A stretch of DNA of 64,000 bases from the sequence record MH675927.1. One strand, written 5' to 3'. Positions 28,594-64,000 of this stretch are shown piece by piece (positions within the stretch are counted from its first letter, which is position 1; every line of letters starts with the position of its first letter). A program made the position numbers and the translations under genes. This DNA comes from Escherichia phage vB_vPM_PD114. A model generated the notes under the pieces. That model was given only the letters and a program-made list of their open reading frames with translations. It had not been told where the DNA came from and ran no database searches.

Positions 28594-29571
28594 TTAAGCA
28601 ACAGCCTGGTCTTCTTTTTCAGGGAAGATTAAACTTGCAATAACACCCAGCCCCAGAGTACCTAACACAATATACATACTGATCGTCGGATCAATGTGTG
28701 CTGGCAGGAAACTCACTTTTGCGTGCAGAGTTTCTGCAAACGGGTGATACATCAGTTTTACACCCACAAATACCAGGACTACGATAACTGCTTTCTCCAG
28801 ATGAACCAAATATTTCAGTGCAACACTAAGGACAAAGAACAGAGCACGTAGACCTAAAATTGCACACAGCATTGAAGAAAATACAAGCAGAGGTTCTTGT
28901 GTCACTGCAATTACTGCTGGAACAGAGTCTACTGCAAAGATTACGTCAACCATTTCCATTACAAACACACAAACCAATGCAGGAGTTGCTACACGAACAC
29001 CATTTTTGATTGTGAAGAACTTCTCACCATCCATCTGATCAGATACAGGGAACAGCTTACGAACAATGCGAGTAGCCCAATGTTTAGAGTAATCAACTTC
29101 TGCGTCATTATCTCCAGCAAATACCATTTTAGCTGCACAGAAAAGGATGACCGCACCGAAGAAGATATTAACATACCAGCCCAAACTCAACAAGTAAGTA
29201 CCTACTGCTACAAACACACCTCGGAAGACAATCGCACCTGCAATACCCCAAAGTAGAATCTTATGCTGCAAGTGTGTGCTTTTAATACCAAAACTTGCGA
29301 ATACTGCCACAAATACTACTAAGTTATCTACAGAAAGAGATTTCTCCAACACATACCCACTCAAGAACAAGCTCGCAAAATCAGCACCGTGTTGGAAGTA
29401 TACAAAACCATAGTAGGCTAACGATACCCCAATCCAGAAGATTGACCAGCCAATTGCAGATTTAAATGAAATTTCTTTGTTTTCTCTGTGTCCAAAGAAA
29501 TCAATACAAATCGACAAGACTAAAATACCCACTAAAACAACCACATCAATAATTGGGAAACCCAGTTGCAT
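28594..29571 (-). CDS. TerC-family integral membrane protein
   Basis: Multiple TM helices; hallmark EKSLSVDNLVVFVAVF and second repeat DVIFAVDSVPAVIAV (TerC/Alx signature). Confidence 0.8.
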   Translation of the reverse strand: MQLGFPIIDVVVLVGILVLSICIDFFGHRENKEISFKSAIGWSIFWIGVSLAYYGFVYFQHGADFASLFLSGYVLEKSLSVDNLVVFVAVFASFGIKSTHLQHKILLWGIAGAIVFRGVFVAVGTYLLSLGWYVNIFFGAVILFCAAKMVFAGDNDAEVDYSKHWATRIVRKLFPVSDQMDGEKFFTIKNGVRVATPALVCVFVMEMVDVIFAVDSVPAVIAVTQEPLLVFSSMLCAILGLRALFFVLSVALKYLVHLEKAVIVVLVFVGVKLMYHPFAETLHAKVSFLPAHIDPTISMYIVLGTLGLGVIASLIFPEKEDQAVA

Positions 29572-29589
29572 TCTTTTCTCCTCTTTAAT

Positions 29590-29608
29590 GCGGAGGACAA
29601 TCCTCCGC
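29590..29608 (-). other. intergenic stem-loop (GCGGAGGA-CAA-TCCTCCGC)
   Basis: 8-bp GC stem immediately upstream of the TerC RBS. Confidence 0.3.
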
Positions 29609-29648
29609 TCTATGTCGTATACTATAAACTGTTTTTAAAGAAAGTCAA

Positions 29649-52967: not shown

Positions 52968-53229
52968 TACAGAATAACGCGCAGGGGCGGTGTTTGTCTC
53001 GCGCTCCCGTGTCCCCTCGCCATACAATAAGAATAGCATAACCAACAACAAAAGCAAGCGATTATTTTTATCTTTACATTTCTTTACAAATTTATTTTAG
53101 ACGAGCTACCGGCGATCAACCTTCCAACCAGTGCCCCCTGGTATGTTAGCCCCGCCTTTACGCCGTGGGGGTGGCGTTTCCTCTTCTGTATGTAAAACAG
53201 TATAAGCCCGATCCCTGGGCTTGTCAAGA

Positions 53230-53496
53230 TTATTTTTTGTTTTCTTGCCAGGATAGGACACCTAACCAAAAATACATGTCGCCCCGCGCCCCTGGTGGGA
53301 TCTTGCTTTCCCCGCCGCCACTGCAAGCCCATAGATAACCATTTACGAACGTATCAAAGTGATCTATCTCTTCCACCTTATGATCGCCCAGGTTGAGAAC
53401 GGTTTCAACCTTTAAGCCCGTTGCGCTTGCTACCTGGTGCACCGTGCCGCCTTGCCAGCCCAGTGAGTGCATGAGATGTAAAGGAGTATTTGTCAT
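53230..53496 (-). CDS. hypothetical protein in a G+C-rich island
   Basis: 88-aa ORF with RBS AAAGGG; region is visibly more G+C-rich than its surroundings; no motif recognised. Confidence 0.35.
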   Translation of the reverse strand: MTNTPLHLMHSLGWQGGTVHQVASATGLKVETVLNLGDHKVEEIDHFDTFVNGYLWACSGGGESKIPPGARGDMYFWLGVLSWQENKK

Positions 53497-53607
53497 GGTA
53501 TCGCCCTTTCTTTGTTGTGCGCCCTGGTTGGCGCGGTAGAAAGATGATAGCCGTTTCCTTTATAGATAGCAAGCAAAAAAGAAATGAAAAAAGATTAAAA
53601 AAAATGG

Positions 53608-53636
53608 TTGACGTTCCTCACCTGGTAGCGTAGTAT
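53608..53636 (+). promoter_or_regulatory. sigma70-like promoter (TTGACG-17-TAGTAT), first of the rightward early-gene array
   Basis: Near-consensus hexamers with 17-bp spacer about 130 nt upstream of 53765. Confidence 0.5.
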
Positions 53637-53764
53637 TCATCTTGTCGAGGGGCGGCAAGGCACAACGACAATAAACAATAGGCGGGTGCAATGCAAGACG
53701 GGCAAAGGTGAGGATCTCCACAATCCACCGTCACAATAACATTACTTATAAAAGGTTGATAACA

Positions 53765-53869
53765 ATGATCAAGAAAGAAAATAGCTTGACGGTTGGAACG
53801 ATTAACGCTATCATTCTTGCCGTTCCCTTTTGGATTGTAGTGTCAGTTATTATTTCAATCATTCTATAA
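53765..53869 (+). CDS. small membrane peptide (34 aa; not in ORF track)
   Basis: ATG with AAAGG RBS; hydrophobic. Confidence 0.3.
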   Translation: MIKKENSLTVGTINAIILAVPFWIVVSVIISIIL

Positions 53870-53879
53870 GGCGCACACT

Positions 53880-54161
53880 ATGAGCAAGGTAATTAGTCAT
53901 AAAGAGTTAAGCCCTACTCTTTCAATGAGTGAGTGCACCGATGGCTTTTGGCTGTATGATGATACGCGCGGCATGAATTTAGCTATGCGTGAAAAAACAG
54001 AAGAGGCGGCGTATATTGAAGCCCTGGAATACTACCAGGAACGACTAAAGGAAGTAGAAAACAATTATAATAACCTAAAAACAAAGGTAGATCATTTTAT
54101 CAGCCAGGTGGCAGATGACGACGATGATCACTATTGCGAGCGGTGCGGATCATACAGCTAA
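53880..54161 (+). CDS. hypothetical protein
   Basis: 93 aa; acidic DDDDD tract and C-terminal CERCG. Confidence 0.45.
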   Translation: MSKVISHKELSPTLSMSECTDGFWLYDDTRGMNLAMREKTEEAAYIEALEYYQERLKEVENNYNNLKTKVDHFISQVADDDDDHYCERCGSYS

Positions 54162-54181
54162 AATTATTTTTAAAAATATTC

Positions 54182-54242
54182 TTGACAACGTTTTTTAAAC
54201 TGATAAGATGTATCACATAGGGCGGCGGAATACTTCCCCGCC
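54182..54242 (+). promoter_or_regulatory. sigma70 promoter (TTGACA-16-TAAGAT, extended TG) plus GC-rich leader hairpin
   Basis: TTGACA 54182-54187, TAAGAT 54204-54209, hairpin GGGCGGCGGAATACTTCCCCGCC 54220-54242, then RBS and ATG 54265; 40-nt promoter sequence repeated at 56520. Confidence 0.6.
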
Positions 54243-54264
54243 AAAACAAAAAAAGGGTAATGCA

Positions 54265-54627
54265 ATGAGCAAGCAAATCAATACTATCATGTTTAATCTG
54301 GTATCTTTCCGCGACGATATGAAAAATTTACCACGTGAAACGGTTGATATTCATGTTTCAGCTTATCGCGCCCTTATTGATATGTTACCGCTAAAACGTG
54401 ATCAACATGCCGCTAATATGATGCTTAATGCTATGCTTAAAAAGATGATTCAAACGGATCTCACCCTGGCGTATGAGTATCAAGGGCGCTTATATGCAAC
54501 TTACAACAAGGCGGTACCTGGTCTGGGAAGTACCGAAGAGTTGCACGGCTTAAACCTGGATCAAAACACTTGGGATAGTATGCGCCGCGTTATGGTATGG
54601 GCCGAAAGCGGTAAAATTTACGAATAA
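54265..54627 (+). CDS. hypothetical protein
   Basis: Start at ATG 54265 (RBS AAGGG) downstream of promoter and hairpin; the longer track ORF begins inside the promoter. Confidence 0.5.
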   Translation: MSKQINTIMFNLVSFRDDMKNLPRETVDIHVSAYRALIDMLPLKRDQHAANMMLNAMLKKMIQTDLTLAYEYQGRLYATYNKAVPGLGSTEELHGLNLDQNTWDSMRRVMVWAESGKIYE

Positions 54628-54633
54628 AAACGG

Positions 54634-54686
54634 TTGACATTGCACTAAAACCTGATAAGCTATCTTAAAGCGGGAACTATTCCCGC
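54634..54686 (+). promoter_or_regulatory. sigma70 promoter (TTGACA-16-TAAGCT) plus leader hairpin GCGGGAA-CTA-TTCCCGC
   Basis: TTGACA 54634-54639; hairpin 54670-54686. Confidence 0.55.
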
Positions 54687-54705
54687 TTACATAGGATAAA
54701 ACTTT

Positions 54706-54852
54706 ATGAAACAATATGTAATGAGTATTCATACCAAAAACGGCGCTACTGTTACGACTCCGGCACGGTTTGCACTTGTAAACCGTTGCAACAGACTAAA
54801 ACGAGAGCTAAAAAATAACCGTGCAACGGGCTTTAAACGCTGGGGAGGATAA
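54706..54852 (+). CDS. small hypothetical basic protein (48 aa; not in ORF track)
   Basis: ATG 54706 after promoter and hairpin; stop 2 nt before the next gene start. Confidence 0.35.
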   Translation: MKQYVMSIHTKNGATVTTPARFALVNRCNRLKRELKNNRATGFKRWGG

Positions 54853-54854
54853 TC

Positions 54855-55115
54855 TTGTTTTTTCTAAAAGTTTTTGATAATGTGATCGCTTTTGAACATG
54901 CTACAACGTTCGACCTGGCGAGATATGCTATCAGGTTTAAAGATAATGTTTATCCCCGTGCTGGCGGCGGTTACACTATTTTTAATCATCGCAACGCGCA
55001 ACTGACTGATGTAACTAATCCAGATCCTGGAGTGTATCGGATAGGCTGGCTACCGTCAAAAGACGCTGCAAGCATGTTTAAGGTATGTAAACTACTAACA
55101 GAAGAGGCGAACTAG
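54855..55115 (+). CDS. hypothetical protein
   Basis: TTG start with RBS GGAGGAT; 86 aa. Confidence 0.45.
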   Translation: MFFLKVFDNVIAFEHATTFDLARYAIRFKDNVYPRAGGGYTIFNHRNAQLTDVTNPDPGVYRIGWLPSKDAASMFKVCKLLTEEAN

Positions 55116-55116
55116 C

Positions 55117-55671
55117 ATGGGGCGTGAATATGTGATCCAGTCCTGGGTAAAGCATGACGCAAATGATCCGCGCATAATACCAGATGACATGATCGATCAC
55201 ATGGTAGGGTATAGCGGGGAGCAGATAGGAAATCGAGCGGCAAAGAGCAACGGCAATACCAGGACGAGATCCGTTCGCCCTGGATGGCTGGCGAATGGTA
55301 ACGCTGACATTGCAAGCGCCGCAGATCCAAGCGATGACGCTAAAAATAATCCCTTGTACAGCATTGATCCGGCTTTTAAGGTGTTGGAAGAGTATCCCGC
55401 TAAATTAGCCGCACTAGATAAGGCATACGCAGAAAAGCGCATGGCATGGACTGTATACAACACCGCTAAAATGGTGCTAGATGCAAAACTAATTAAAGCC
55501 CAGGAGAAGATCAATAAACTTGTTACCATAGCGCAAAAGGAAGACCAGGGCGACCAGGAGGAAGAGGAAGAAATCATGCCTATCCTGGAAGAGGAAGAGA
55601 TCCAGCCATACATGCCGACGGAAGAGGAAAAAAGACAAGCCTTAAAAAATTATGAAAATTGTGTTGTGTAA
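55117..55671 (+). CDS. hypothetical protein with acidic C-terminal tail
   Basis: 184 aa; EEEEE-rich C-terminus. Confidence 0.45.
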   Translation: MGREYVIQSWVKHDANDPRIIPDDMIDHMVGYSGEQIGNRAAKSNGNTRTRSVRPGWLANGNADIASAADPSDDAKNNPLYSIDPAFKVLEEYPAKLAALDKAYAEKRMAWTVYNTAKMVLDAKLIKAQEKINKLVTIAQKEDQGDQEEEEEIMPILEEEEIQPYMPTEEEKRQALKNYENCVV

Positions 55672-55674
55672 GGC

Positions 55675-55729
55675 TTGACATATGCAAACAAGCCCCGTAA
55701 TATATACCACATAGAGCGGGGCAACGCCT
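55675..55729 (+). promoter_or_regulatory. sigma70 promoter (TTGACA-17-TAATAT) with degenerate GC leader element
   Basis: TTGACA 55675-55680, TAATAT 55698-55703, CATAGAGCGGGGCAACGCC downstream. Confidence 0.45.
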
Positions 55730-55751
55730 CAAAGGTGAAATAAAAAATCAC

Positions 55752-55779
55752 TTGACACCTGAAATCAGTAAGCTATAAT
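55752..55779 (+). promoter_or_regulatory. consensus sigma70 promoter (TTGACA-16-TATAAT)
   Basis: Perfect -35 and -10 hexamers at 55752-55757 and 55774-55779, upstream of ATG 55817. Confidence 0.65.
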
Positions 55780-55816
55780 GCTTATATAAATTAAAGCGTT
55801 ACTAAGGAATAAAATC

Positions 55817-56182
55817 ATGGCTAAAAATATCAATGTTTCTGCTTATGCTACCCTGGCTAACACTGCTAAAATTGAACTATCCAGCATTGAAGCGGTACAT
55901 ATTAGCGCCCGTCGCTGGTTTCAAAAGTCTTATGGTAATACTTATTTCTCTTTGATGGTTGACGTTGAGATCGGCGGTAAACTGATTGAAGTCGTTAACG
56001 TTCCGTTTCAATATGGTTATGGTGATCATTTTGATACCGTTGCCCTAGAAGAGTTTAGCAAGGTTATCAACCTGGAAGGTAAAGACTTTTCAAATTATGC
56101 TTACCTTTCCCGTTTTTGCCGTGACAATGGGATCGCTGTATACAGTCATGCAAGCGATGTTAAACGTAAAAAAGATTTATAA
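55817..56182 (+). CDS. hypothetical protein
   Basis: 121 aa. Confidence 0.5.
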   Translation: MAKNINVSAYATLANTAKIELSSIEAVHISARRWFQKSYGNTYFSLMVDVEIGGKLIEVVNVPFQYGYGDHFDTVALEEFSKVINLEGKDFSNYAYLSRFCRDNGIAVYSHASDVKRKKDL

Positions 56183-56188
56183 AAAGCA

Positions 56189-56246
56189 TTGACAGCACGA
56201 ATAAAAAGCATATAATACTTATATCGAGAGCGGGAATAGTTCCCGC
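56189..56246 (+). promoter_or_regulatory. consensus sigma70 promoter (TTGACA-16-TATAAT) plus leader hairpin GCGGGAA-TAG-TTCCCGC
   Basis: TTGACA 56189-56194, TATAAT 56211-56216, hairpin 56230-56246. Confidence 0.65.
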
Positions 56247-56270
56247 CTCACTGAAAAAGAGATTAACATC

Positions 56271-56510
56271 ATGGCTAAATCTAAAATGTACAACGGTCAC
56301 AAAAATAAAACTCATTGGAATGTAAGCCTTTGGATTAATAACGATCCAGGTTTTTATAATATGGCAAAAGAATTTATAGCCGTGAACAACAATAAAGATA
56401 ACGCCGCGCGTGAAATGATGTCACTACTTAACGAAATGGGCCAAACTACTACGCCAGATGGCTATAAATTCAGTAAAACCAGTATCCGCGCCGCTATGGT
56501 AGGAATGTAA
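56271..56510 (+). CDS. hypothetical protein
   Basis: 79 aa. Confidence 0.5.
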   Translation: MAKSKMYNGHKNKTHWNVSLWINNDPGFYNMAKEFIAVNNNKDNAAREMMSLLNEMGQTTTPDGYKFSKTSIRAAMVGM

Positions 56511-56519
56511 TAAAAACAG

Positions 56520-56579
56520 TTGACAACGTTTTTTAAACTGATAAGATGTATCACATAGGGCGGGAAATGGTTTCCCGCC
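56520..56579 (+). promoter_or_regulatory. sigma70 promoter (TTGACA-16-TAAGAT) plus 21-bp palindrome GGCGGGAAATGGTTTCCCGCC
   Basis: Promoter nearly identical over 40 nt to the one at 54182; palindrome 56559-56579. Confidence 0.6.
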
Positions 56580-56601
56580 AAATCAAAGAAAGGTTAACAT
56601 T

Positions 56602-56829
56602 ATGGCTATCGTTATTGTTCGCGTATCCGGTACGGTTGGGATCTCCCAGGTAGTAGCAGTTATCACCGAGAAGAAAGGGGATGATCTTCACTCCTCTTTG
56701 AATAGCTGGGCGGTCGCTAACTTTGGGCAATGGTCGAGCGTTGAGTACATCGAAGCATACCAGGTGCCAACGATTAGCCTAACCGATCTAAATGTTGATC
56801 GCTTGTTGTGCCTGGATCAATTAAACTAA
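56602..56829 (+). CDS. hypothetical protein
   Basis: 75 aa. Confidence 0.5.
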   Translation: MAIVIVRVSGTVGISQVVAVITEKKGDDLHSSLNSWAVANFGQWSSVEYIEAYQVPTISLTDLNVDRLLCLDQLN

Positions 56830-56837
56830 AAATAATA

Positions 56838-56895
56838 TTGACAAGATAACTAAAATCAGTAAAATGTAATGCATAGGGCGGCACTATTGCCGCCC
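56838..56895 (+). promoter_or_regulatory. sigma70 promoter (TTGACA-16-TAAAAT) plus leader hairpin GGGCGGCA-CTAT-TGCCGCCC
   Basis: TTGACA 56838-56843; hairpin 56876-56895. Confidence 0.55.
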
Positions 56896-56916
56896 CTAGT
56901 GAGAGAGATTATCAAA

Positions 56917-57132
56917 ATGGCTAATATCCGCACACTGTTAAAAAATGCAAGTCAAGTTTTATTTTCAGATGACGAGTATTTCAACAAAGACATTACAGGC
57001 GTGAAAAATTTAAAAGACGTGAAGGATGTTATCGGTATCCGTGGATCTTTACGTAAAGATGACATATACGGTAACAAGGTGCAATATAAATTGTCAAAAG
57101 ATTATGATTTTACTTTGACAATTATTTCATAA
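56917..57132 (+). CDS. hypothetical protein
   Basis: Start at ATG 56917 after the leader hairpin; the longer track ORF would start inside the hairpin. Confidence 0.5.
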   Translation: MANIRTLLKNASQVLFSDDEYFNKDITGVKNLKDVKDVIGIRGSLRKDDIYGNKVQYKLSKDYDFTLTIIS

Positions 57133-57138
57133 AACTAC

Positions 57139-57199
57139 TTGCAAACCTGGTAAAATAAAGTAAACTATATTCATTAAGGCGGTAGAATAGCCCACCGCC
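57139..57199 (+). promoter_or_regulatory. sigma70-like promoter (TTGCAA-16-TAAACT) plus leader hairpin GGCGGT...ACCGCC
   Basis: TTGCAA 57139-57144; hairpin 57178-57199. Confidence 0.45.
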
Positions 57200-57222
57200 T
57201 AACAAAGAGAAGAGGAAACATC

Positions 57223-57393
57223 ATGATTACTTTCGCCACCCGTGAAGCCGCTCGCAACGTTGCACGTAAAGTTAACGCCGCCAACCTGGGCGCTACGCTT
57301 AAAGCACCGGTTAAAGATGAATCAGGAAAATGGATCTTTCCTGGTCTGCGTCACGCTGATAAGCTGGGAACATTAACGTTAAAAAATAAATAA
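57223..57393 (+). CDS. small hypothetical basic protein (56 aa; not in ORF track)
   Basis: ATG 57223 with RBS AGAGGAAA after promoter and hairpin. Confidence 0.4.
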   Translation: MITFATREAARNVARKVNAANLGATLKAPVKDESGKWIFPGLRHADKLGTLTLKNK

Positions 57394-57400
57394 TATTCGC

Positions 57401-57459
57401 TTGACAGTAGCATCATTTATAAGTAAAGTAACAACAACGGCGGGAAATGGTTTCCCGCC
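57401..57459 (+). promoter_or_regulatory. sigma70 promoter (TTGACA-17-TAAAGT) plus palindrome GGCGGGAAATGGTTTCCCGCC
   Basis: TTGACA 57401-57406; palindrome 57439-57459. Confidence 0.55.
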
Positions 57460-57479
57460 ATCAATAAAGAGATAAGATT

Positions 57480-57839
57480 ATGAAATCAGCAAAAGCAATT
57501 AAAACTTACATTTTATCGGCTATTTCTTTTGATGGTACTACAACCGAAAAAGAAAAGATCACCGAACTGATGCGCCGTTTTAACTCTGAATACTGGTATC
57601 CCGATAATCAAAAACGTTACAATCATAACATGACCAAGGCGATAGCCTCATGGTTACAAGGTTTACCGTCAGAAGTCAATATTGCTTTTGATTATAATGA
57701 GATCGATCACTTGTTAATTGAATGGAAGTGCATAAAAGAAACAAGCAAAGAAACAACCGTTACCCGTGAGCGGGAAAATTATTGGTTATATATTGCAAGC
57801 ATGATCGTAATCCTGGCAAAACAGCATAACGTGGCGTAA
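57480..57839 (+). CDS. hypothetical protein
   Basis: 119 aa. Confidence 0.5.
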   Translation: MKSAKAIKTYILSAISFDGTTTEKEKITELMRRFNSEYWYPDNQKRYNHNMTKAIASWLQGLPSEVNIAFDYNEIDHLLIEWKCIKETSKETTVTRERENYWLYIASMIVILAKQHNVA

Positions 57840-57854
57840 TTAAGAGGAAGAAAC

Positions 57855-57992
57855 ATGAACGCATCACAGCAGATCGAAAAATTCAACCGCAGCAAGGCGC
57901 GTAAAGATTGGAACGAAGAGATCACCAAAAAAGGCGATAAGCGGAACAAAACAAAAAGAGATCGCAGCACAAAAAGACACTGGAACGAATAA
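57855..57992 (+). CDS. small hypothetical basic protein (45 aa; not in ORF track)
   Basis: ATG 57855 with RBS GAGGAAG; K/R-rich; followed by a terminator. Confidence 0.35.
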   Translation: MNASQQIEKFNRSKARKDWNEEITKKGDKRNKTKRDRSTKRHWNE

Positions 57993-57994
57993 CA

Positions 57995-58021
57995 AAAAGG
58001 GCGCAATAAGCGCCCTTTTAG
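57995..58021 (+). terminator. rho-independent terminator (GGGCGC-AATA-GCGCCC)
   Basis: Hairpin with A-run before and T-run after; same hairpin at 62880. Confidence 0.7.
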
Positions 58022-58110
58022 CTTATATAGAGGCTTGTTACCCATAGGCAATGGTAACGCCAGGGCAAGCCTATAAATCAACGTTAGACGGCTTTACAGG
58101 AGCTTTAAAA

Positions 58111-58293
58111 ATGAGATTAGAAGAAATAAGCAAGGCACTAGCCCAGGGGCAAAGGTTATGCGCCCGATATCGTGATCAATATGGCTTCATAACTAGCGGC
58201 GTGATCCTGGGGATTGAAGGCAATAAAATTTTTATTGACACGTTGAAAAACGTTGTATATAGTGACAATATAATCTCAATAAAACATATATGA
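58111..58293 (+). CDS. hypothetical protein
   Basis: Start at ATG 58111 (RBS CAGGAG); 60 aa. Confidence 0.4.
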   Translation: MRLEEISKALAQGQRLCARYRDQYGFITSGVILGIEGNKIFIDTLKNVVYSDNIISIKHI

Positions 58294-58301
58294 GGCAAGA
58301 A

Positions 58302-58703
58302 ATGAAAAAATTATTGATCGCTGGTTTAATCTCTTTTGGCATGGTTGGAACATCTAGCGCGGCGATATCCTCCACAATAGCAGAATTAAGCGCCGTTGAT
58401 GCAATGGAAAACGTCATGATCATTAATAACGCGATCCCCGATGAAATCATGGAGGATTCTCACATGATCGCTTATGGTGCTGTTACACAATTAACGGCAA
58501 AAATAGATAAATCTATTGTTAATGGCTTAAATGAAGATGTACCATGTGAAATTATTACCAGTGTGCTAACGACTCAAAATTTTACGCCGTGGCTAAAAAG
58601 TATTCAAAAGGTACACAGCACCGCCGCAGATCGTAGCAATGAAAAACTAGTGTCAGCACTTGCAACGTATACCCTAGCAAAATGTACCGAAATAAAAGAT
58701 TGA
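58302..58703 (+). CDS. hypothetical secreted protein
   Basis: Signal peptide MKKLLIAGLISFGMVGTSSAA; start ATG 58302 (RBS GAGG). Confidence 0.5.
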   Translation: MKKLLIAGLISFGMVGTSSAAISSTIAELSAVDAMENVMIINNAIPDEIMEDSHMIAYGAVTQLTAKIDKSIVNGLNEDVPCEIITSVLTTQNFTPWLKSIQKVHSTAADRSNEKLVSALATYTLAKCTEIKD

Positions 58704-58728
58704 CAACATAGAAAGCACGTTATAAGAT
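58700..58728 (+). promoter_or_regulatory. sigma70 promoter (TTGACA-17-TAAGAT)
   Basis: TTGACA 58700-58705, TAAGAT 58723-58728, followed by RBS AAAGGAGA and ATG 58751. Confidence 0.55.
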
Positions 58729-58750
58729 ACACACAACAAAGGAGAACTAC

Positions 58751-59053
58751 ATGAACGGCATAGCTAAAACGTTTTTTCTTTTTTCTGGTGTAAATGATCC
58801 ATCAATAAAAGTCGATAGTGTAAAAGAAAACAACACTATCACCGCTAAATTGTTTCAAGATGAAACAAATAACGTGCTAATCATTAATCTTAAAGAAATA
58901 ACGAAAGGTTATTATACTATTGCTTACCATGCGATCTATCATGCGGGTACTAGTGAGGAAGTGCAAACAAGCAACAACGAAAGCGCGGCGCTACCTGGTG
59001 ATCTGGTGCTGGGCGTTATCAGTTTAATTGTCAATGATTTTTTTAAGGAGTAA
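58751..59053 (+). CDS. hypothetical protein
   Basis: 100 aa. Confidence 0.5.
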   Translation: MNGIAKTFFLFSGVNDPSIKVDSVKENNTITAKLFQDETNNVLIINLKEITKGYYTIAYHAIYHAGTSEEVQTSNNESAALPGDLVLGVISLIVNDFFKE

Positions 59054-59057
59054 AACC

Positions 59058-59153
59058 ATGCCCTATTTACATTTATTTTTCGGTATCTTATTGACAGGAT
59101 CTTTTTTCTTCTGTATGCTTGTTTCTATTGTAAACCACGTTTTAAGACATTAA
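59058..59153 (+). CDS. small hydrophobic peptide (31 aa; not in ORF track)
   Basis: ATG with RBS AAGGAG; single TM helix. Confidence 0.25.
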   Translation: MPYLHLFFGILLTGSFFFCMLVSIVNHVLRH

Positions 59154-59162
59154 GGAAACAGC

Positions 59163-59282
59163 ATGAAAATTATTCCCGTACAGTATAGCGTAATAAATCC
59201 AGCATATGAGGAAGGAAGGAAAACAAGCATGGTTTTATGTTGTATTGCTACTATAGCCATGTTATTATACATTGTGTTTTAA
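59163..59282 (+). CDS. small hydrophobic peptide (39 aa; not in ORF track)
   Basis: ATG with RBS AAGGAAA; C-terminal TM helix. Confidence 0.25.
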   Translation: MKIIPVQYSVINPAYEEGRKTSMVLCCIATIAMLLYIVF

Positions 59283-59311
59283 TAGGTTTTATAGTTGTAC
59301 GCTTTAAAGGC

Positions 59312-59363
59312 TTGACAATTTTTTGTTATGCTTTAAACTATATCTTGAAAACGGCAAAGGCCG
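59312..59363 (+). promoter_or_regulatory. sigma70-like promoter (TTGACA-16-TAAACT) plus short leader hairpin CGGC-AAAG-GCCG
   Basis: TTGACA 59312-59317; hairpin 59352-59363. Confidence 0.45.
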
Positions 59364-59382
59364 CAAACAAAAGGGTAAAATT

Positions 59383-59706
59383 ATGAAATCTGTGATCGGT
59401 GTTTATTTGGATAACTCTGATTTTTTCTATCATCGTGCGCGTTTCCTTGATGCGATTGAAATGATAGAATCAGGCTTTAAAGAATACCGCCTTGCACATG
59501 ATGACCTGGAAGCATTACAGGGCAATAGTGTTTTTACATTGCAAGCGAAAGCACTATGCAAAAGCCGGATCGACATTGCGAGCAAAAAGATAGAACGCGG
59601 CATGTCCTGGTTGCGCACCGCAGAAATCAACATGGGGCAATGGTACGGCGAAAACTTAGAAAATAAACGCCCTTTTGTAAATGTAGAAAATCTTAAAGAT
59701 TATTGA
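59383..59706 (+). CDS. hypothetical protein
   Basis: Start at ATG 59383 (RBS AAAAGGG); 107 aa. Confidence 0.5.
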   Translation: MKSVIGVYLDNSDFFYHRARFLDAIEMIESGFKEYRLAHDDLEALQGNSVFTLQAKALCKSRIDIASKKIERGMSWLRTAEINMGQWYGENLENKRPFVNVENLKDY

Positions 59707-59768
59707 TTGACAGCACACCTGATAAGTAATATATTGTATCTCATAGAGCGGGGAAATGGTTTCCCCGC
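59706..59768 (+). promoter_or_regulatory. sigma70 promoter (TTGACA-17-TATATT) plus leader hairpin GCGGGGAAA-TGGT-TTTCCCCGC
   Basis: TTGACA 59706-59711, TATATT 59729-59734, hairpin 59747-59768. Confidence 0.55.
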
Positions 59769-59789
59769 CTAACAGAAGAGAGAAAAATC

Positions 59790-60074
59790 ATGAAAATCAC
59801 AAAAAGCCTAACTAATTATGCAGCACGTCGCGGATTATGTTTAACCGTTGAAAACTTAGGGAAAGAAGACTTTTTGTGTTTTTGGGAGCTTGAAAATGAT
59901 TGCGAGTGGATGTTTTCTTATTCTATCTGCGAAGATCAAAACGGTTGTTTGTTAACCTGGCGCGGTAATATCTATTTACCGGAAGAAATTAAAGAAGAGT
60001 TACCAGGTACGATCATGACAGAGAGACAGCTTAAGGAAGTGATCAATTTTGTAGGGCAAAACATTAAAAAATAA
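59790..60074 (+). CDS. hypothetical protein
   Basis: 94 aa. Confidence 0.5.
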   Translation: MKITKSLTNYAARRGLCLTVENLGKEDFLCFWELENDCEWMFSYSICEDQNGCLLTWRGNIYLPEEIKEELPGTIMTERQLKEVINFVGQNIKK

Positions 60075-60075
60075 T

Positions 60076-60136
60076 TTGACAGCACGCAAACAACGTAGTA
60101 AAGTTTATTACATAGAGCGGTGGACCATTCCGCCGC
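60076..60136 (+). promoter_or_regulatory. sigma70 promoter (TTGACA-17-TAAAGT) plus leader hairpin GCGGTGGA-CCAT-TCCGCCGC
   Basis: TTGACA 60076-60081, TAAAGT 60099-60104, hairpin 60117-60136 (one mismatch in stem). Confidence 0.5.
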
Positions 60137-60159
60137 TCACAACAGAAGAGAAACAAATC

Positions 60160-60330
60160 ATGATCCCGACTATGTTTTATGTATCGCGCAAAGGTCACAA
60201 TATTTTTTGGTCTGAAGATTTAAATGAAGCCATGACGTTTGCCCGTAATCGTGTTGCTATCGGTGGCGTTAACATCACCGTAACCGATGAAAACGGCATT
60301 GAATACTATAACGGCGACGATGAAGAATAA
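60160..60330 (+). CDS. hypothetical protein
   Basis: Start at ATG 60160 after the hairpin; 56 aa. Confidence 0.45.
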   Translation: MIPTMFYVSRKGHNIFWSEDLNEAMTFARNRVAIGGVNITVTDENGIEYYNGDDEE

Positions 60331-60337
60331 TTAATGA

Positions 60338-60357
60338 GGCGGGGGAGTATTCCCGCC
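60338..60357 (+). promoter_or_regulatory. intergenic GC hairpin without an obvious promoter (GGCGGG-GGAGTATT-CCCGCC)
   Basis: Same hairpin family as the leader elements, but directly between two genes of one transcription unit. Confidence 0.4.
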
Positions 60358-60376
60358 ATTAATAAAGAGGTAAATC

Positions 60377-60652
60377 ATGAAAATATCATTGGACGTTGCA
60401 ATCAAGGCCATCGAATCCGGTTACACCCTGGTAAAAGATGATAAGGCTAAAATAGTGCATCATGTTAACAAGGAAACAGGCGAAAGCATGATCACATATA
60501 AAGCCGCCTACTTTCTCCAATCAGTAGCAGATCCGCGCGTACAACGCCAGGTTACGGCGGCTATTGCTAAAAAATTATGTGCTTTACAGGGTACAAGTTT
60601 TAACGAGATCGCCCCGTGTTTTGACTGGTCGAGCTTGAAAAAATTAGTTTGA
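60377..60652 (+). CDS. hypothetical protein
   Basis: 91 aa; RBS AAAGAGG. Confidence 0.5.
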   Translation: MKISLDVAIKAIESGYTLVKDDKAKIVHHVNKETGESMITYKAAYFLQSVADPRVQRQVTAAIAKKLCALQGTSFNEIAPCFDWSSLKKLV

Positions 60653-60710
60653 CAACAGTCAACAATCTGGTAAAGTGTACTACATAGGGCGGGGCAATAA
60701 GGCAACGCCC
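60649..60710 (+). promoter_or_regulatory. sigma70 promoter (TTGACA-16-TAAAGT) plus GC-rich leader element
   Basis: TTGACA 60649-60654, TAAAGT 60671-60676, GGGCGGGGCAATAAGGCAACGCCC 60687-60710. Confidence 0.5.
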
Positions 60711-60728
60711 ATTAATGATGGTAGAATC

Positions 60729-60833
60729 ATGTTAGAGAAAATTTTCACGGTTGTAATAGTGGGCCTGGCGTTATCGGTTGGAGTGGTTGCAACTATGGCT
60801 AATATGATCCTATCTTCCCACGGTATCGGTTAA
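60729..60833 (+). CDS. small hydrophobic peptide (34 aa; not in ORF track)
   Basis: ATG 60729; single TM helix. Confidence 0.3.
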   Translation: MLEKIFTVVIVGLALSVGVVATMANMILSSHGIG

Positions 60834-60847
60834 AAGAGAGACACAGC

Positions 60848-61234
60848 ATGAAAACAGAAATCATTATTGAAATCATCAACGGTTATAAAGAAGCCTTTAT
60901 TTTTGCTGAATCAGCAAGGGATCATGAAGGTAATTTTATTGAAAACTTAGACGATTATGATTTTTCTCCTAGCGCGGATCAACGGATCGCCCAGGATGTA
61001 ACAGCCTTTATTAATGCTAATCTTGCCGCTATCTCTGAGGCAATGAGCGACGGCGCAACAGCCAACCAGATCGGGAATGATTTACATTTTACTCGTAACG
61101 ATCATGGCGTTGGTTTTTGGGATCGCCCTGAAATATACACTACTAACACAGCAAACCGTTTAACTAATGCAGCTAAATTAATGCCATCGGTGCATGCTTA
61201 CATTGGTGAAGATAATTTGATTTATATTGAATAA
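60848..61234 (+). CDS. hypothetical protein
   Basis: 128 aa; RBS AAAGAGAGA. Confidence 0.5.
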   Translation: MKTEIIIEIINGYKEAFIFAESARDHEGNFIENLDDYDFSPSADQRIAQDVTAFINANLAAISEAMSDGATANQIGNDLHFTRNDHGVGFWDRPEIYTTNTANRLTNAAKLMPSVHAYIGEDNLIYIE

Positions 61235-61240
61235 AAAGTG

Positions 61241-61299
61241 TTGACACCGATCCCCAATATGGTATTATTTACCACGTAGGCGGGAAATGGTTTCCCGCC
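61241..61299 (+). promoter_or_regulatory. sigma70 promoter (TTGACA-16-TATTAT) plus palindrome GGCGGGAAATGGTTTCCCGCC
   Basis: TTGACA 61241-61246; palindrome 61279-61299 (third identical copy). Confidence 0.55.
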
Positions 61300-61322
61300 A
61301 GGTAATCAAAAAGGTAAATACT

Positions 61323-61712
61323 ATGCGCAACCTGGTTTCTGTTTCTAACGTTGAAAAATTCCAATCCTTGCAGGGTATCGTTAACAACGTAGCGCCTTTT
61401 TTAGTCAATGGCTTGATTGCAAAGATGAAAAATAAACATCATGCGGCATGGTCTGCTTACTGCTTTGATAATGATGAAAAAGCGGCTGAAATGATGTTAA
61501 ATATGCTGCTAGACAGTGTAGAATCATCTTTACCGGAAAACATCGCAGAAGAGATCACCTATCGTTATAATATGGCGATCACTTACCAGGAAGTAGCACA
61601 GTTTAACATGATGGATGAAGATGACCAACAGGATCAGGAAATGTTTTGGGAGTATGCTGATCGTCAATCGGCTTTTGATGAAAAATTAGCGATGTATTAT
61701 AACGAATATTAA
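61323..61712 (+). CDS. hypothetical protein
   Basis: Start at ATG 61323 (RBS AAAAAGG) after the palindrome; 129 aa. Confidence 0.5.
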   Translation: MRNLVSVSNVEKFQSLQGIVNNVAPFLVNGLIAKMKNKHHAAWSAYCFDNDEKAAEMMLNMLLDSVESSLPENIAEEITYRYNMAITYQEVAQFNMMDEDDQQDQEMFWEYADRQSAFDEKLAMYYNEY

Positions 61713-61724
61713 TACACGGTAAAA

Positions 61725-61754
61725 GAAAGGGGCGCACTAAGCGCCCTTTTTTGT
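61725..61754 (+). terminator. rho-independent terminator (GGGGCGC-ACTA-AGCGCCC)
   Basis: Hairpin followed by TTTTTTG. Confidence 0.7.
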
Positions 61755-62097
61755 ATTCTTTTTTCACGATAGAAACAACACGTAAAGAATAGGCGTAAAG
61801 GTGGCGTAAAACCATCTAAAACCGATTGTAACCGCTTAAACAAGGTAGGGATGATTAATCACCTTACCAGGACGAAAAAGCCGTTATAAAGCTATCTAGA
61901 GCGTTTAAAGCACATAGGAAATAATTTGCTTTTTATCTTGCCTTTTATTCTGCTTTTGATTATTATTATGGAACGGGCGGCACCTGGGGACAGGGGAAGA
62001 TAATCACCGGAAGATCCCGCTATATATTGATAGCTAACATCTATCAAACAACAAAACATCAAAGGAATAAACTATCAAATCTTTACAATCTCACCTA

Positions 62098-62156
62098 TTG
62101 ACACCGGATCGCCCTTATACTAAGATGTATCACGTAGGCGGGAAGTGGTTTCCCGC
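62098..62156 (+). promoter_or_regulatory. sigma70 promoter (TTGACA-17-TAAGAT) plus leader hairpin GCGGGAA-GTGG-TTCCCGC
   Basis: TTGACA 62098-62103, TAAGAT 62121-62126, hairpin 62138-62156. Confidence 0.6.
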
Positions 62157-62175
62157 TCAATATAGGAATCATATC

Positions 62176-62406
62176 ATGATCGAACAAATTAAACGCGCTG
62201 AGGCTATTAACGGCAATGTGATCTATTCTGTCAGCAATAACGAAAAAGGCGTACCTTATGCAGCGGTGATAGTACAGCCTGACGGTGATTATTGGTTTAC
62301 TGTATACGGATCTTATTCTTTTGGGCGTCCAGTACATGATAAAATTTTGAAAGTAGCTAATCCCACCGGCAAGAATATCACAGTAGAAAAATTCTATGAA
62401 AAATAA
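62176..62406 (+). CDS. hypothetical protein
   Basis: Start at ATG 62176 after the hairpin; 76 aa. Confidence 0.5.
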   Translation: MIEQIKRAEAINGNVIYSVSNNEKGVPYAAVIVQPDGDYWFTVYGSYSFGRPVHDKILKVANPTGKNITVEKFYEK

Positions 62407-62407
62407 C

Positions 62408-62436
62408 TTGCTTTATAGCCTCTGTTAATTTATAGT
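62408..62436 (+). promoter_or_regulatory. sigma70-like promoter (TTGCTT-17-TATAGT)
   Basis: Hexamers at 62408-62413 and 62431-62436 upstream of ATG 62482. Confidence 0.45.
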
Positions 62437-62481
62437 TATCGTGTAGGGCAAGCAATTTTAAACGGTAAACGAGGAATCTCC

Positions 62482-62865
62482 ATGAGCAATATCATCAACC
62501 TGGCGGCTACTGTAAACGGTAAAGATTTTAATGGCGCTGTAGATCGTGATCCTATGTGGTGCTTATCCGTATTCAAAGGTGACTTGGTTGAAGTTAGAAC
62601 AACCGAAGGTTATAGCGACGATTATAAATGTGAGATTCATTTGCACAACTGGTACACGGGTAAAACTTATGCGCTGAATCATGCGTTTATCGGGAAAATT
62701 GAATATCGCGAGATGATCGACGAGGAAACCGGGCAAGATTTTAGCGATTATGTTTATATTCGTTCAGAAACATTAGCCGAACGTTTGATCGAGAAAATGA
62801 AAGCAAAAAATAAAATTAATTTAGCTCATTGGCTTGATATAACAAACGATCCGGCTTATAAGTAA
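62482..62865 (+). CDS. hypothetical protein
   Basis: 127 aa; RBS GAGGAA; last gene before the terminator and AT-rich region. Confidence 0.5.
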   Translation: MSNIINLAATVNGKDFNGAVDRDPMWCLSVFKGDLVEVRTTEGYSDDYKCEIHLHNWYTGKTYALNHAFIGKIEYREMIDEETGQDFSDYVYIRSETLAERLIEKMKAKNKINLAHWLDITNDPAYK

Positions 62866-62877
62866 ATAACATTTCAC

Positions 62878-62907
62878 ACAAGGGCGCAATAAGCGCCCTT
62901 TCTTTTT
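62878..62907 (+). terminator. rho-independent terminator (GGGCGC-AATA-GCGCCC)
   Basis: Same hairpin as at 57997; followed by TTTCTTTTT. Confidence 0.7.
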
Positions 62908-63111
62908 ACCTCAATAAAGATGATATCTTTTACCTATCAAAAACGTTCACCGAAAAAGTGAATAGATCGCGGTATCGAGCTAATCAAGGAGCAGATGAAC
63001 AACCATACCATGAAGATCATAAGGCGCTTACAACGTGTTTTAGACCGCTTATTTTTAATTTCTTCATGCAACTATCTGGCAAAAACAGCCTTTTTCTTGT
63101 CTTTCCTCTTA

Positions 63112-63184
63112 AATGATAATCATTCTTATTTATAGCTGATTATTTATGCAATAAACTGAATAATGTAATAATGATAATCATTCT
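63112..63184. promoter_or_regulatory. two Fur-box-like sites (AATGATAATCATTCTTA)
   Basis: ATAATGATAATCATTCT (63168-63184) matches 16/17 positions of the E. coli Fur consensus; second copy at 63112-63128. Confidence 0.45.
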
Positions 63185-63911
63185 TAACTTAAGACCATCT
63201 AACCTATAAAATAATAAGTTATCTAACTAAATTAAAACTAATTATCTCACCTTTATTTATAACTTACTGTTACTATGTCATTGATAACCTTATATTAAAC
63301 AACAATAACTAATATAAATCATTACTAAGCTAAATATAATATATCTAACCTTTAAAACTATAACTATAATCTATTGAATTATTGCACAAAGTAACTATTA
63401 AATCGTTAGTAACATTACTAAATAATTCATATCCTATCTATTTATAATCTAACCTTTATCTTCCTATCTATTACCTAAGTAATCATTTCATACAATAATT
63501 ATAACAAGAAATATAATTAGCAAGCGTATCATTAGCAGCCTATGCCGGACACATAGGCGGCTAATAATAACGCAACTACACACCTCACATAATAACCATC
63601 ACCGATAGTTATTATCTGTGCTTATGTAGCTTGCAACAACTGCAAGCGCAACAATATACATGGTATATTGTATTCCCTTACATTGTTGCGGTGCGTTATT
63701 ATTAGCTAATGTTTGGAACATTGGCTATAATATAAGCTATCCAATAATAAACATAGTGAATAATGACCCTGATGATCATAATGCGCCACCTTCCAGGGGG
63801 CGCTATGTGAACACAAAGAAATCTTTCTTGTCAAGAAAAATATTACCATTATTGCGCAAAATTATTTACATCTGAATAGATGGTTTTTCATACTATTGCC
63901 CCCAATACTAT

Positions 63912-64000
63912 CCCTATTTGTTGTTATTTGTTGGATAAAATTATCCCTATTTGTTGCAGTATAAACTATTATTTGTTGCCCTAACTATTGCTATTTGTTG
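63912..64000. repeat. iteron-like direct repeats (C)TATTTGTTG, at least five copies, running to the window edge
   Basis: CCCTATTTGTTG at 63912 and 63945; TTATTTGTTG at 63924 and 63969; CTATTTGTTG at 63991. Confidence 0.6.

Follow-up and report, generated by a model that had tools for sequence, protein, structure and literature searches.

A repeated 21-bp palindrome in Escherichia phage vB_vPM_PD114 belongs to a family of early-gene hairpins and probably forms a 5'-terminal mRNA stem-loop

Stem-loops at the very 5' end of a transcript are reported to shield Escherichia coli mRNAs from RNase E (Bouvet & Belasco 1992 and Emory et al. 1992, both listed in PMC3997798). Small stem-loop modules have also been described from the T4-type phages RB49/phi1, PST/T4 and nt-1/KVP40, where they are known as promoter-early stem-loop (PeSL) cassettes (Arbiol et al. 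2010, PMC2839356; Comeau et al. 2014, PMC4122927). Here, we analyzed a 21-bp palindrome, GGCGGGAAATGGTTTCCCGCC, that is present in three exact copies in a stretch of 64,000 nucleotides (nt) from Escherichia phage vB_vPM_PD114 (MH675927.1); this whole stretch is referred to as the window, and all positions are counted from its first letter. The window derives from a myovirus genome of about 147 kb that belongs to the phi92/phAPEC8 group (Stephanstirmvirinae, with Justusliebigvirus and Phapecoctavirus), and about 270 records of a phage collection match it, the best with about 94% identity. Within this group, the element has received contradictory labels. The record of phAPEC8 (JX561091) gives GTAGGGCGGCAATGGTGCCG as a "putative promoter determined with PHIRE", those of ASO2A and Paula (LR865361 and MZ726793) label the hairpins "terminator", in Paula mostly on the strand opposite to the genes, and the record of phi92 leaves the element unannotated. 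In a literature search on phi92, phAPEC8 and rV5-like phages, we found no paper that deals with where the hairpin lies in the transcript or with what it does; the papers mention ARNold terminators and sigma70-like early promoters only. The analysis below provides a consistent reading for this contradictorily labelled element.

The 21-mer occurs at 56559-56579, 57439-57459 and 61279-61299, all on the + strand. A preliminary description, which was made from the letters of the window alone, had given these three positions and had placed each copy between a promoter -10 box and a start codon, and both statements were borne out: -35 box, -10 box and ATG were located for all three copies. By chance, no copies are expected, and none of 100 dinucleotide-preserving shuffles yielded any match. 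The three hairpins begin 11, 9 and 10 nt downstream of a sigma70-type -10 box, respectively, and the ATG follows 22, 20 and 23 nt past the hairpin end. The corresponding promoters and hairpins are as follows.

56520-56547, + strand: sigma70-like promoter of cassette 1, with TTGACA at 56520, a 16-nt spacer and TAAGAT at 56542-56547.
56559-56579, + strand: hairpin version A, exact copy 1 (GGCGGGAAATGGTTTCCCGCC), with the ATG at 56602.
57401-57429, + strand: sigma70-like promoter of cassette 2, with TTGACA, a 17-nt spacer and TAAAGT at 57424-57429.
57439-57459, + strand: hairpin version A, exact copy 2, with the ATG at 57480.
61241-61268, + strand: sigma70-like promoter of cassette 3, with TTGACA, a 16-nt spacer and TATTAT at 61263-61268, preceded by TG.
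61279-61299, + strand: hairpin version A, exact copy 3, with the ATG at 61323.

Outside the consensus boxes, the flanks of the exact copies are dissimilar. Over 39 nt from the hairpin start, identity to the copy at 56559 is only 67% and 79% for the other two, and the contrast between a conserved 21-mer and divergent flanks is therefore real, as is the earlier view of the element as a hairpin-forming palindrome in the 5' untranslated region (UTR) of early genes. For exact copy 1, the predicted RNA fold has an energy of -15.4 kcal/mol (z -3.2), with an unpaired leader downstream. Two near-copies had also been proposed. Both exist, although each had been written out with a one-base error: the first reads GCGGGGAAATGGTTTCCCCGC at 59748-59768 (previously with one extra T and a start one base early), and the second reads GCGGGAAGTGGTTTCCCGC at 62138-62156 (previously one T short), within a copy of GGCGGGAAATGGTTTCCCGCC with two mismatches at 62137-62157. 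A motif scan of the window recovered all copies reported before, together with at least eight further + strand members and one on the - strand that had been missed. The exact 21-mer occurs only seven times in 596 Gb of bacterial genomes, each time in unrelated high-GC taxa and never in Enterobacteria, and a scan of IMG/VR returned only three loci from two related contigs.

The 21-mer is thus accompanied by a larger set of hairpins. Searching for the pattern GCGG...CCGC revealed at least 13 related + strand hairpins in the array of small early genes at 54-62 kb and a 14th on the - strand at 29590-29608; 13 of the 14 lie inside the array, whose open reading frames (ORFs) encode 34-129 amino acids (aa). 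At least ten different hairpin versions coexist in this array. All but one of the 13 + strand hairpins are found downstream of a TTGACA-type promoter (TTGACA, 16- or 17-nt spacer, TAnnnT), the exception being a hairpin without promoter at 60338, and all array hairpins lie upstream of an A-rich leader in which a Shine-Dalgarno site precedes an ATG. The cassette hairpins of the window are built on GGCGG..CCGCC stems, their fold energies range from -11 to -18 kcal/mol, and they always start 6-11 nt after the -10 box. Beside the three exact copies, the members of the family are the following.

62137-62157, + strand: hairpin version A2, GGCGGGAAGTGGTTTCCCGCT, with promoter at 62098-62126 and ATG at 62176.
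59746-59771, + strand: hairpin version A3, with the core GCGGGGAAATGGTTTCCCCGC at 59748-59768, promoter at 59707-59735 and ATG at 59790.
54221-54242, + strand: hairpin version D, GGCGGCGGAATACTTCCCCGCC, with promoter at 54182-54209.
54668-54688, + strand: hairpin AAGCGGGAACTATTCCCGCTT, with promoter at 54634-54661.
56228-56251, + strand: hairpin version C, GAGCGGGAATAGTTCCCGCCTC, with promoter at 56189-56216 and ATG at 56271 of a gene for a DUF7249 protein.
56876-56895, + strand: hairpin GGGCGGCACTATTGCCGCCC, with promoter at 56838-56865.
57177-57200, + strand: hairpin AGGCGGTAGAATAGCCCACCGCCT, with a TTGCAA promoter at 57139-57166.
60115-60138, + strand: hairpin GAGCGGTGGACCATTCCGCCGCTC, with promoter at 60076-60104.
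60338-60357, + strand: hairpin GGCGGGGGAGTATTCCCGCC, without promoter, located past a stop codon and ahead of the Shine-Dalgarno site and ATG at 60377.
60687-60710, + strand: hairpin GGGCGGGGCAATAAGGCAACGCCC, with promoter at 60649-60676.
29590-29608, - strand: hairpin GCGGAGGATTGTCCTCCGC, the only cassette hairpin outside the array, with a TTGACT/TATAGT promoter from 29648 and a TerC-family gene at 29571-28594.

The - strand cassette has the same layout as those of the array. Together with the gene that it drives, this cassette occupies 28594-29648; the product, a 325-aa TerC-family integral membrane protein (PF03741, E 1e-38), is unusual as an accessory gene product of a lytic phage.

To describe the family across phages, 87 unique hairpins of this kind were collected from ten related phage sequences. 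The common unit is a cassette of about 90 bp that consists of near-consensus sigma70 -35 and -10 boxes, a C-R-T-A-G start region, the hairpin, an A-rich leader of 17-24 nt with a Shine-Dalgarno site, and the ATG. In 55 of 77 promoter-linked cassettes from the ten sequences, the hairpin starts exactly 11 nt past the -10 box with CATAG or CGTAG just before it. The ATG lies 17-24 nt beyond the hairpin. Strong folds are enriched at this place in the array as well: just downstream of 10 of the 16 promoters with an exact TTGACA, we found a fold of -9 kcal/mol or less, compared to 8% in shuffles and 7% in the region at large. Copies without a promoter ahead of a Shine-Dalgarno site and ATG occur at 60338 and at several sites in relatives, so the element is not tied to promoter DNA.

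We then considered what is conserved within the hairpins. Each predicted 5' UTR contains a single hairpin with a stem of 7-10 bp and a fold energy of -13 to -17 kcal/mol (z about -3 to -4). Downstream of it, the leader with the Shine-Dalgarno site and the ATG is unpaired throughout. A GCGG/CCGC clamp is present in 61 of the 87 unique hairpins and spans three phage groups, whereas the interior is variable; in these 61 hairpins, the two clamp halves are 6, 8, 9, 10, 11, 12 or 13 nt apart. A plain MAFFT alignment shifted the 3' arms out of register, and the loops were padded with N to keep the arms aligned for the pair counts. The first inner stem pair is G-C in 24 cases, C-G in eight and U-A in two, and the second is A-U in 27 and G-C in ten. 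Overall, 91% of the cells pair, compared to 40-66% with the partner column slid, and the covariation score of 0.258 (0.144 in shuffles) was reached by none of 500 shuffles. Entirely unlike stems also occupy the same slot, among them GGGGCG/CGCCCC, GGGGGC/GCCCC, GGGCC.. and GGGGAGAA/TTCTCCC. On the gene-sense strand, G.T wobbles outnumber A.C mismatches by about two to one, an excess that leans toward an RNA read from this strand; comparing the fold energies between the strands gave a mixed result. No cassette hairpin is followed by a T-run on the gene strand, as the tails are A-rich, and a covariance-model search of 53000-64000 against Rfam 15 (E <= 1) returned no match at the hairpins. Judged from these alignments, the structure of the hairpin is conserved more than its sequence. 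In an evolutionary sense, it is pairing and not sequence that has been kept, one of the marks by which a stabilising stem-loop would be recognised, with many stems, compensatory pairs and versions that are interchangeable at orthologous sites.

This interchangeability is best seen when the window is compared with its relatives. At orthologous sites, these carry other versions between identical flanks, for example GGCGGCAATGGTGCCGC and GAGCGGCGGAATGGTCCACCGCTC, and some of them are the reverse complement of the version in the window. At site 60115, near-identical flanks of about 75 nt upstream and 50 nt downstream in four phages enclose a hairpin that occurs in three states: version E, GAGCGGCGGAATGGTCCACCGCTC, in phAPEC8, ZCKP1 and tuntematon, its exact reverse complement in the window, and version A in Paula and AV123. 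At site 56876, the hairpin interior is inverted relative to Paula and AV123, and within the window itself the core of the hairpin at 54668-54688 (54670-54686) is the reverse complement of the paralogous core at 56230-56246. These in-place flips suggest template switching or recombination between the palindrome arms. Around site 61279, collinearity among the window, ASO2A, tuntematon and phAPEC8 extends as far as ...CACGTAGG, past which they split into two classes that differ both in the hairpin and in the genes downstream; similarity of phAPEC8 and tuntematon to the window stops within the 61279 hairpin, which places a recombination breakpoint inside the hairpin. The protein encoded by the gene at 59790 is 100% identical to its phAPEC8 counterpart, and the promoter and hairpin ahead of it have been swapped. 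Recombination junctions at the cassette motif are thus seen between related phages, and traces of copying also occur within the window: 54182-54225 is an exact 44-bp duplicate of 56520-56563, from TTGACA to GGGCGG, which ends in the 5' arm of the hairpin, beyond which the hairpins differ (version D vs version A). Version A is present three to five times in Justusliebigvirus genomes (window, Paula, AV123) and at most once (0-1x) in Phapecoctavirus genomes, in which version B (GCGGCAATGGTGCCGC) occurs three to eight times.

Exact repetition extends to another type of module in the array, the intrinsic terminator.

57995-58019, + strand: true intrinsic terminator with T-run, bounding transcription units of the array; repeated at 61724-61752 and 62880-62900.

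This terminator, AAGGGCGCAATAAGCGCCCTT, has exact 21-nt copies at 57997-58017 and 62880-62900 and a 90% copy at 61728-61748. Exact repeats of regulatory modules are therefore general in the array. The preliminary description had taken the exact identity of the three palindromes as a sign of a requirement for this very sequence, for which a sequence-specific factor would account. This conclusion does not hold, given the other hairpins in relatives between identical flanks, the coexistence of at least ten versions in a single array and the exactly repeated true terminator. As versions are swapped and flipped at orthologous sites and the terminator is likewise repeated, identity thus reflects copy-and-paste among modules, i.e., concerted evolution: the exact copies are alike because cassettes copy from one another by recombination and short-patch replacement. 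Selection for pairing is then what keeps the copies from decaying, and the exact hairpin sequence itself appears not to be required.

Taken together, we favour the explanation that the 21-mer is the commonest version of a clamp-hairpin family within a reusable early-gene cassette, and that it serves as a 5' mRNA stem-loop that has been kept uniform through copying; we assign this reading a probability of roughly 55%. Accepting it, host RNA polymerase would start at the R of the conserved C-R pair, which lies 7-8 nt past the -10 box and matches a -1 pyrimidine followed by a +1 purine. The hairpin would then be transcribed from about +4 or +5 and would form a stem-loop at the extreme 5' end of the mRNA. 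There, it is predicted to hinder 5'-end-dependent decay, i.e., removal of pyrophosphate by RppH followed by 5' entry of RNase E, and it may at the same time sequester a G/C-rich segment so that the ribosome-binding region stays open. Recombination and short-patch replacement, whose breakpoints fall within the hairpin or at it, would spread one version within a lineage. The position of the hairpin inside the transcript points to protection of the mRNA 5' end and not to termination. A possible reason for such protection comes from T4, whose Srd stimulates RNase E against host mRNA (PMC4980113), and from rV5, whose gp11 has been reported as a probable Srd homolog (PMC3606486): a phage with an Srd homolog would have reason to protect its own mRNAs. 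A tblastn search for an Srd homolog found none in the 64-kb window, which covers part of the ~147-kb genome.

Several points weigh against this explanation. About one third of the strong array promoters, including those at 55752, 58235 and 58700, have no hairpin, and the hairpin is therefore not obligatory. Promoterless internal copies cannot shield a 5' end unless the transcript is processed. Since whole versions are swapped and are related by descent and copying, the covariation counts do not represent independent mutations, and because the hairpin rows were picked by the clamp pattern and their loops were N-padded, only the non-clamp (inner and outer) pairs are informative. The near-invariance of the GCGG/CCGC clamp exceeds what folding alone needs; common descent with copying can explain it, and a bound factor could do so too. 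A start at the C-R pair would leave 3-4 unpaired nt before the stem, which is reportedly (Emory et al. 1992) the upper limit of what is still protective. RNase E, moreover, easily scans past orthogonal stem-loops (PMC9943677), and a literature search found no transcriptome study of this phage group. Overall, the element is most likely a rather ordinary piece of early-gene regulation, as opposed to a dedicated site for a binding protein.

Among the other explanations, the one that survives best is a recombination module acting at the DNA level. Here, the promoter and the palindrome would, as in PeSL cassettes, provide homology and a hairpin-prone structure and thereby drive insertion, deletion and exchange of small orphan genes, i.e., genes lacking known relatives, and any role of the RNA would be secondary. 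Breakpoints in or at the hairpin, cassettes swapped ahead of identical genes, interiors replaced or inverted in place between identical flanks, and the recurrence of one cassette with its gene in a jumbo phage of another group all agree with it, and so does the predominance of one version per lineage, which the PeSL papers report for their own phages (PMC4122927) and which is matched there by documented recombination at the motifs (PMC2839356). While this would explain how the cassettes spread, it does not account for their fixed register to the -10 box and the Shine-Dalgarno site and leaves both the compensatory pairing and the greater tolerance of G.U over A.C on the sense strand unexplained; a long-term benefit in evolvability alone is also a weak selective force. 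As the principal function we therefore hold it to be possible but rather unlikely, and as an additional property it can hold together with a 5' stem-loop.

In a further possibility, the hairpin is the site of a sequence-specific RNA-binding factor of phage or host that reads the GGCGG/CCGCC base, and perhaps the RUAG 5' end, and co-regulates all early mRNAs, for instance through shut-off or stabilisation. The clamp recurs in 61 of 87 unique hairpins from three phage groups around a variable interior, CATAG or CGTAG is conserved just upstream, and one version is homogenised within each genus. Common descent and copying account for the clamp equally well, however, and other stems (GGGGCG.., GGGGGC.., GGGCC..) occupy the same slot in the same genomes, at least ten versions are found in one genome, and the loops are variable and invertible. 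Furthermore, no candidate protein and no match in Rfam emerged. We thus regard such a factor as unlikely. The same low credence applies to the more specific idea that the RUAG 5' end and the GGCGG/CCGCC base form a shared tag of early mRNAs, by which a putative factor would switch off the early set or protect it jointly. If true, co-evolution with the factor, and not just copying, would lie behind the dominance of version A in Justusliebigvirus and of version B in Phapecoctavirus.

A role as terminator or attenuator of read-through from upstream, as the records of Paula and ASO2A imply and as PeSL stem-loops have been read, might be considered for any stable, GC-rich, intergenic hairpin, and a PeSL stem-loop cut expression of a downstream lacZ about as much as rrnB T1 did (PMC2839356). 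PeSL stem-loops, however, are situated mostly between the -35 and -10 boxes or over the -10 box (PMC2839356), whereas the hairpin here lies inside the transcript of its own promoter, where an efficient terminator would stop its own gene. The gene strand also lacks the T-run and continues with A-rich tails. A terminator scan, which called the GGGCGC...GCGCCC-TTTT elements of both strands (+ strand, 61724 and 62880; - strand, 58019-57995 and 61746-61730), did not call any of the + strand cassette hairpins. With the T-run absent and the hairpin inside its own transcript, we rejected this very improbable role. We likewise rejected an RNase III site, for which the stems of 7-10 bp are too short, as RNase III substrates require longer ones.

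The main suggestion of the preliminary description, that the palindrome is a double-stranded DNA operator at which a dimeric phage regulator blocks the early promoters, was set aside as the least credible of all: a perfect palindrome at about +4 to +25 of strong promoters could indeed block RNA polymerase and several identical copies exist, but the near-invariant half-sites GCGG and CCGC are 6-13 nt apart among the members, to which a rigid dimer on B-form DNA could not fit, the interior varies and covaries, promoterless copies exist, versions with asymmetric G.T positions are common, and the absence of the 21-mer from enterobacterial genomes argues against the site of a host regulator.

The array in which the cassettes are concentrated extends over 53.6-62.9 kb and consists of small + strand genes with products of 34-129 aa. 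Promoters with an exact TTGACA number 16 in the array, compared to only three real intrinsic terminators; other intergenic hairpins elsewhere in the window form a different class, namely bidirectional tetraloop terminators flanked by A-run and T-run. Seven of nine array proteins scanned had no Pfam match passing the curated threshold, the exceptions being the DUF7249 protein and a homolog of T4 gp30.8. The latter, encoded by the ORF at 62482-62865 (PF06019, E 2e-29), belongs to a family of small genes common to distantly related T4-type phages. Upstream of the array, the GC-rich segment 53100-53660 contains unrelated hairpins (e.g., 53149-53177 and 53283-53317) and small minus-strand ORFs; in the record of tuntematon, the corresponding position is labelled as a repeat_region. 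The array is followed by a gene-free, AT-rich block (62900-64000) with short repeats: AATGATAATCATTCTTA occurs twice (63112 and 63170), as does TCCTATCTATT (63432 and 63462), units of the TATTTGTTG type are present about five times in 63904-64000, and a perfect 15-nt inverted repeat has its arms at 63560 and 63692. This block, which might be an origin or serve in regulation, matches the gene-free 5.5-7.0 kb of phAPEC8 and corresponds to the "non-coding" box drawn for rV5 (PMC3606486).

A BLAST search with the 90-nt cassette returned 132 records, nearly all from Stephanstirmvirinae with a few from Vequintavirinae, and no T4-like phages. Individual cassettes are also present in the Vequintavirus phage Mangalyan and in the jumbo Asteriusvirus phage UB. 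The cassette and DUF7249 gene at 56189-56510 are about 81% identical to positions 2518-2700 of UB (MH383160, 353 kb), where the hairpin loop is flipped, and UB holds several more cassettes of the same design. The UB case points to horizontal transfer, in which cassette and gene moved jointly from one phage group to another, unrelated one. Three records named "Campylobacter phage" A145, A110a and A150 (MG065645, MG065689 and MG065639) are about 94% identical to this group of E. coli phages over the whole array, and their Campylobacter host label looks doubtful.

These findings extend the idea of a mobile promoter/stem-loop cassette past the T4-type phages to Stephanstirmvirinae, Vequintavirinae and one jumbo phage, the first two of which comprise widely used therapeutic coliphages. 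The cassettes are compact modules for strong early expression that apparently work wherever they are placed and could serve in phage engineering. In addition, the in-place flips and short-patch replacements provide a clean natural case of concerted evolution and of palindrome-mediated rearrangement over a very short stretch.

How, then, do these cassettes relate to known systems? Canonical intrinsic terminators share with them GC-rich stems of 7-10 bp and small loops. The cassette hairpins, by contrast, lack a U-tract and are found at the 5' and not the 3' end of genes, and the real terminators of the array constitute a distinct repeat family. The 20-mers that PHIRE detected in phAPEC8 are the same element at orthologous positions: GTAGGGCGGCAATGGTGCCG is the version B hairpin with its GTAG leader, and the label differs in that the sigma70 promoter lies immediately upstream, while the 20-mer itself is the transcribed hairpin. 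With the stabilising stem-loops in the 5' UTRs of ompA and papA (Emory, Bouvet & Belasco 1992, cited in PMC3997798), the cassettes have in common a simple, stable hairpin a few nt from the 5' end (here predicted), which is followed by a single-stranded leader with the ribosome-binding site, and in both cases the presence of a stem counts more than its sequence. They differ from these in being a repeated, near-identical module that serves more than 12 genes and in that their 5' ends are predicted. The gene 10 leader of phage T7 also has a 5' stem-loop of comparable type.

Of all known systems, the PeSL cassette comes closest. [quoted passage not shown] Either type accumulates where small orphan genes make up a variable region, has a lineage-specific stem-loop consensus and shows recombination junctions at the motif. 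For PeSL cassettes, terminator activity and the formation of mini-circles have been shown by experiment. However, the PeSL stem-loop is mostly positioned between the -35 and -10 boxes or on top of the -10 box, and its assigned role is to terminate incoming transcription (PMC2839356), whereas the hairpin described here is always located past the -10 box and the predicted start, within its own transcript and without a T-run. The phages that carry the two cassettes differ as well, being Straboviridae for PeSL and Stephanstirmvirinae and Vequintavirinae in the present case, and as the BLAST search with the cassette returned no T4-like phages, the resemblance is therefore one of analogy and not of homology.

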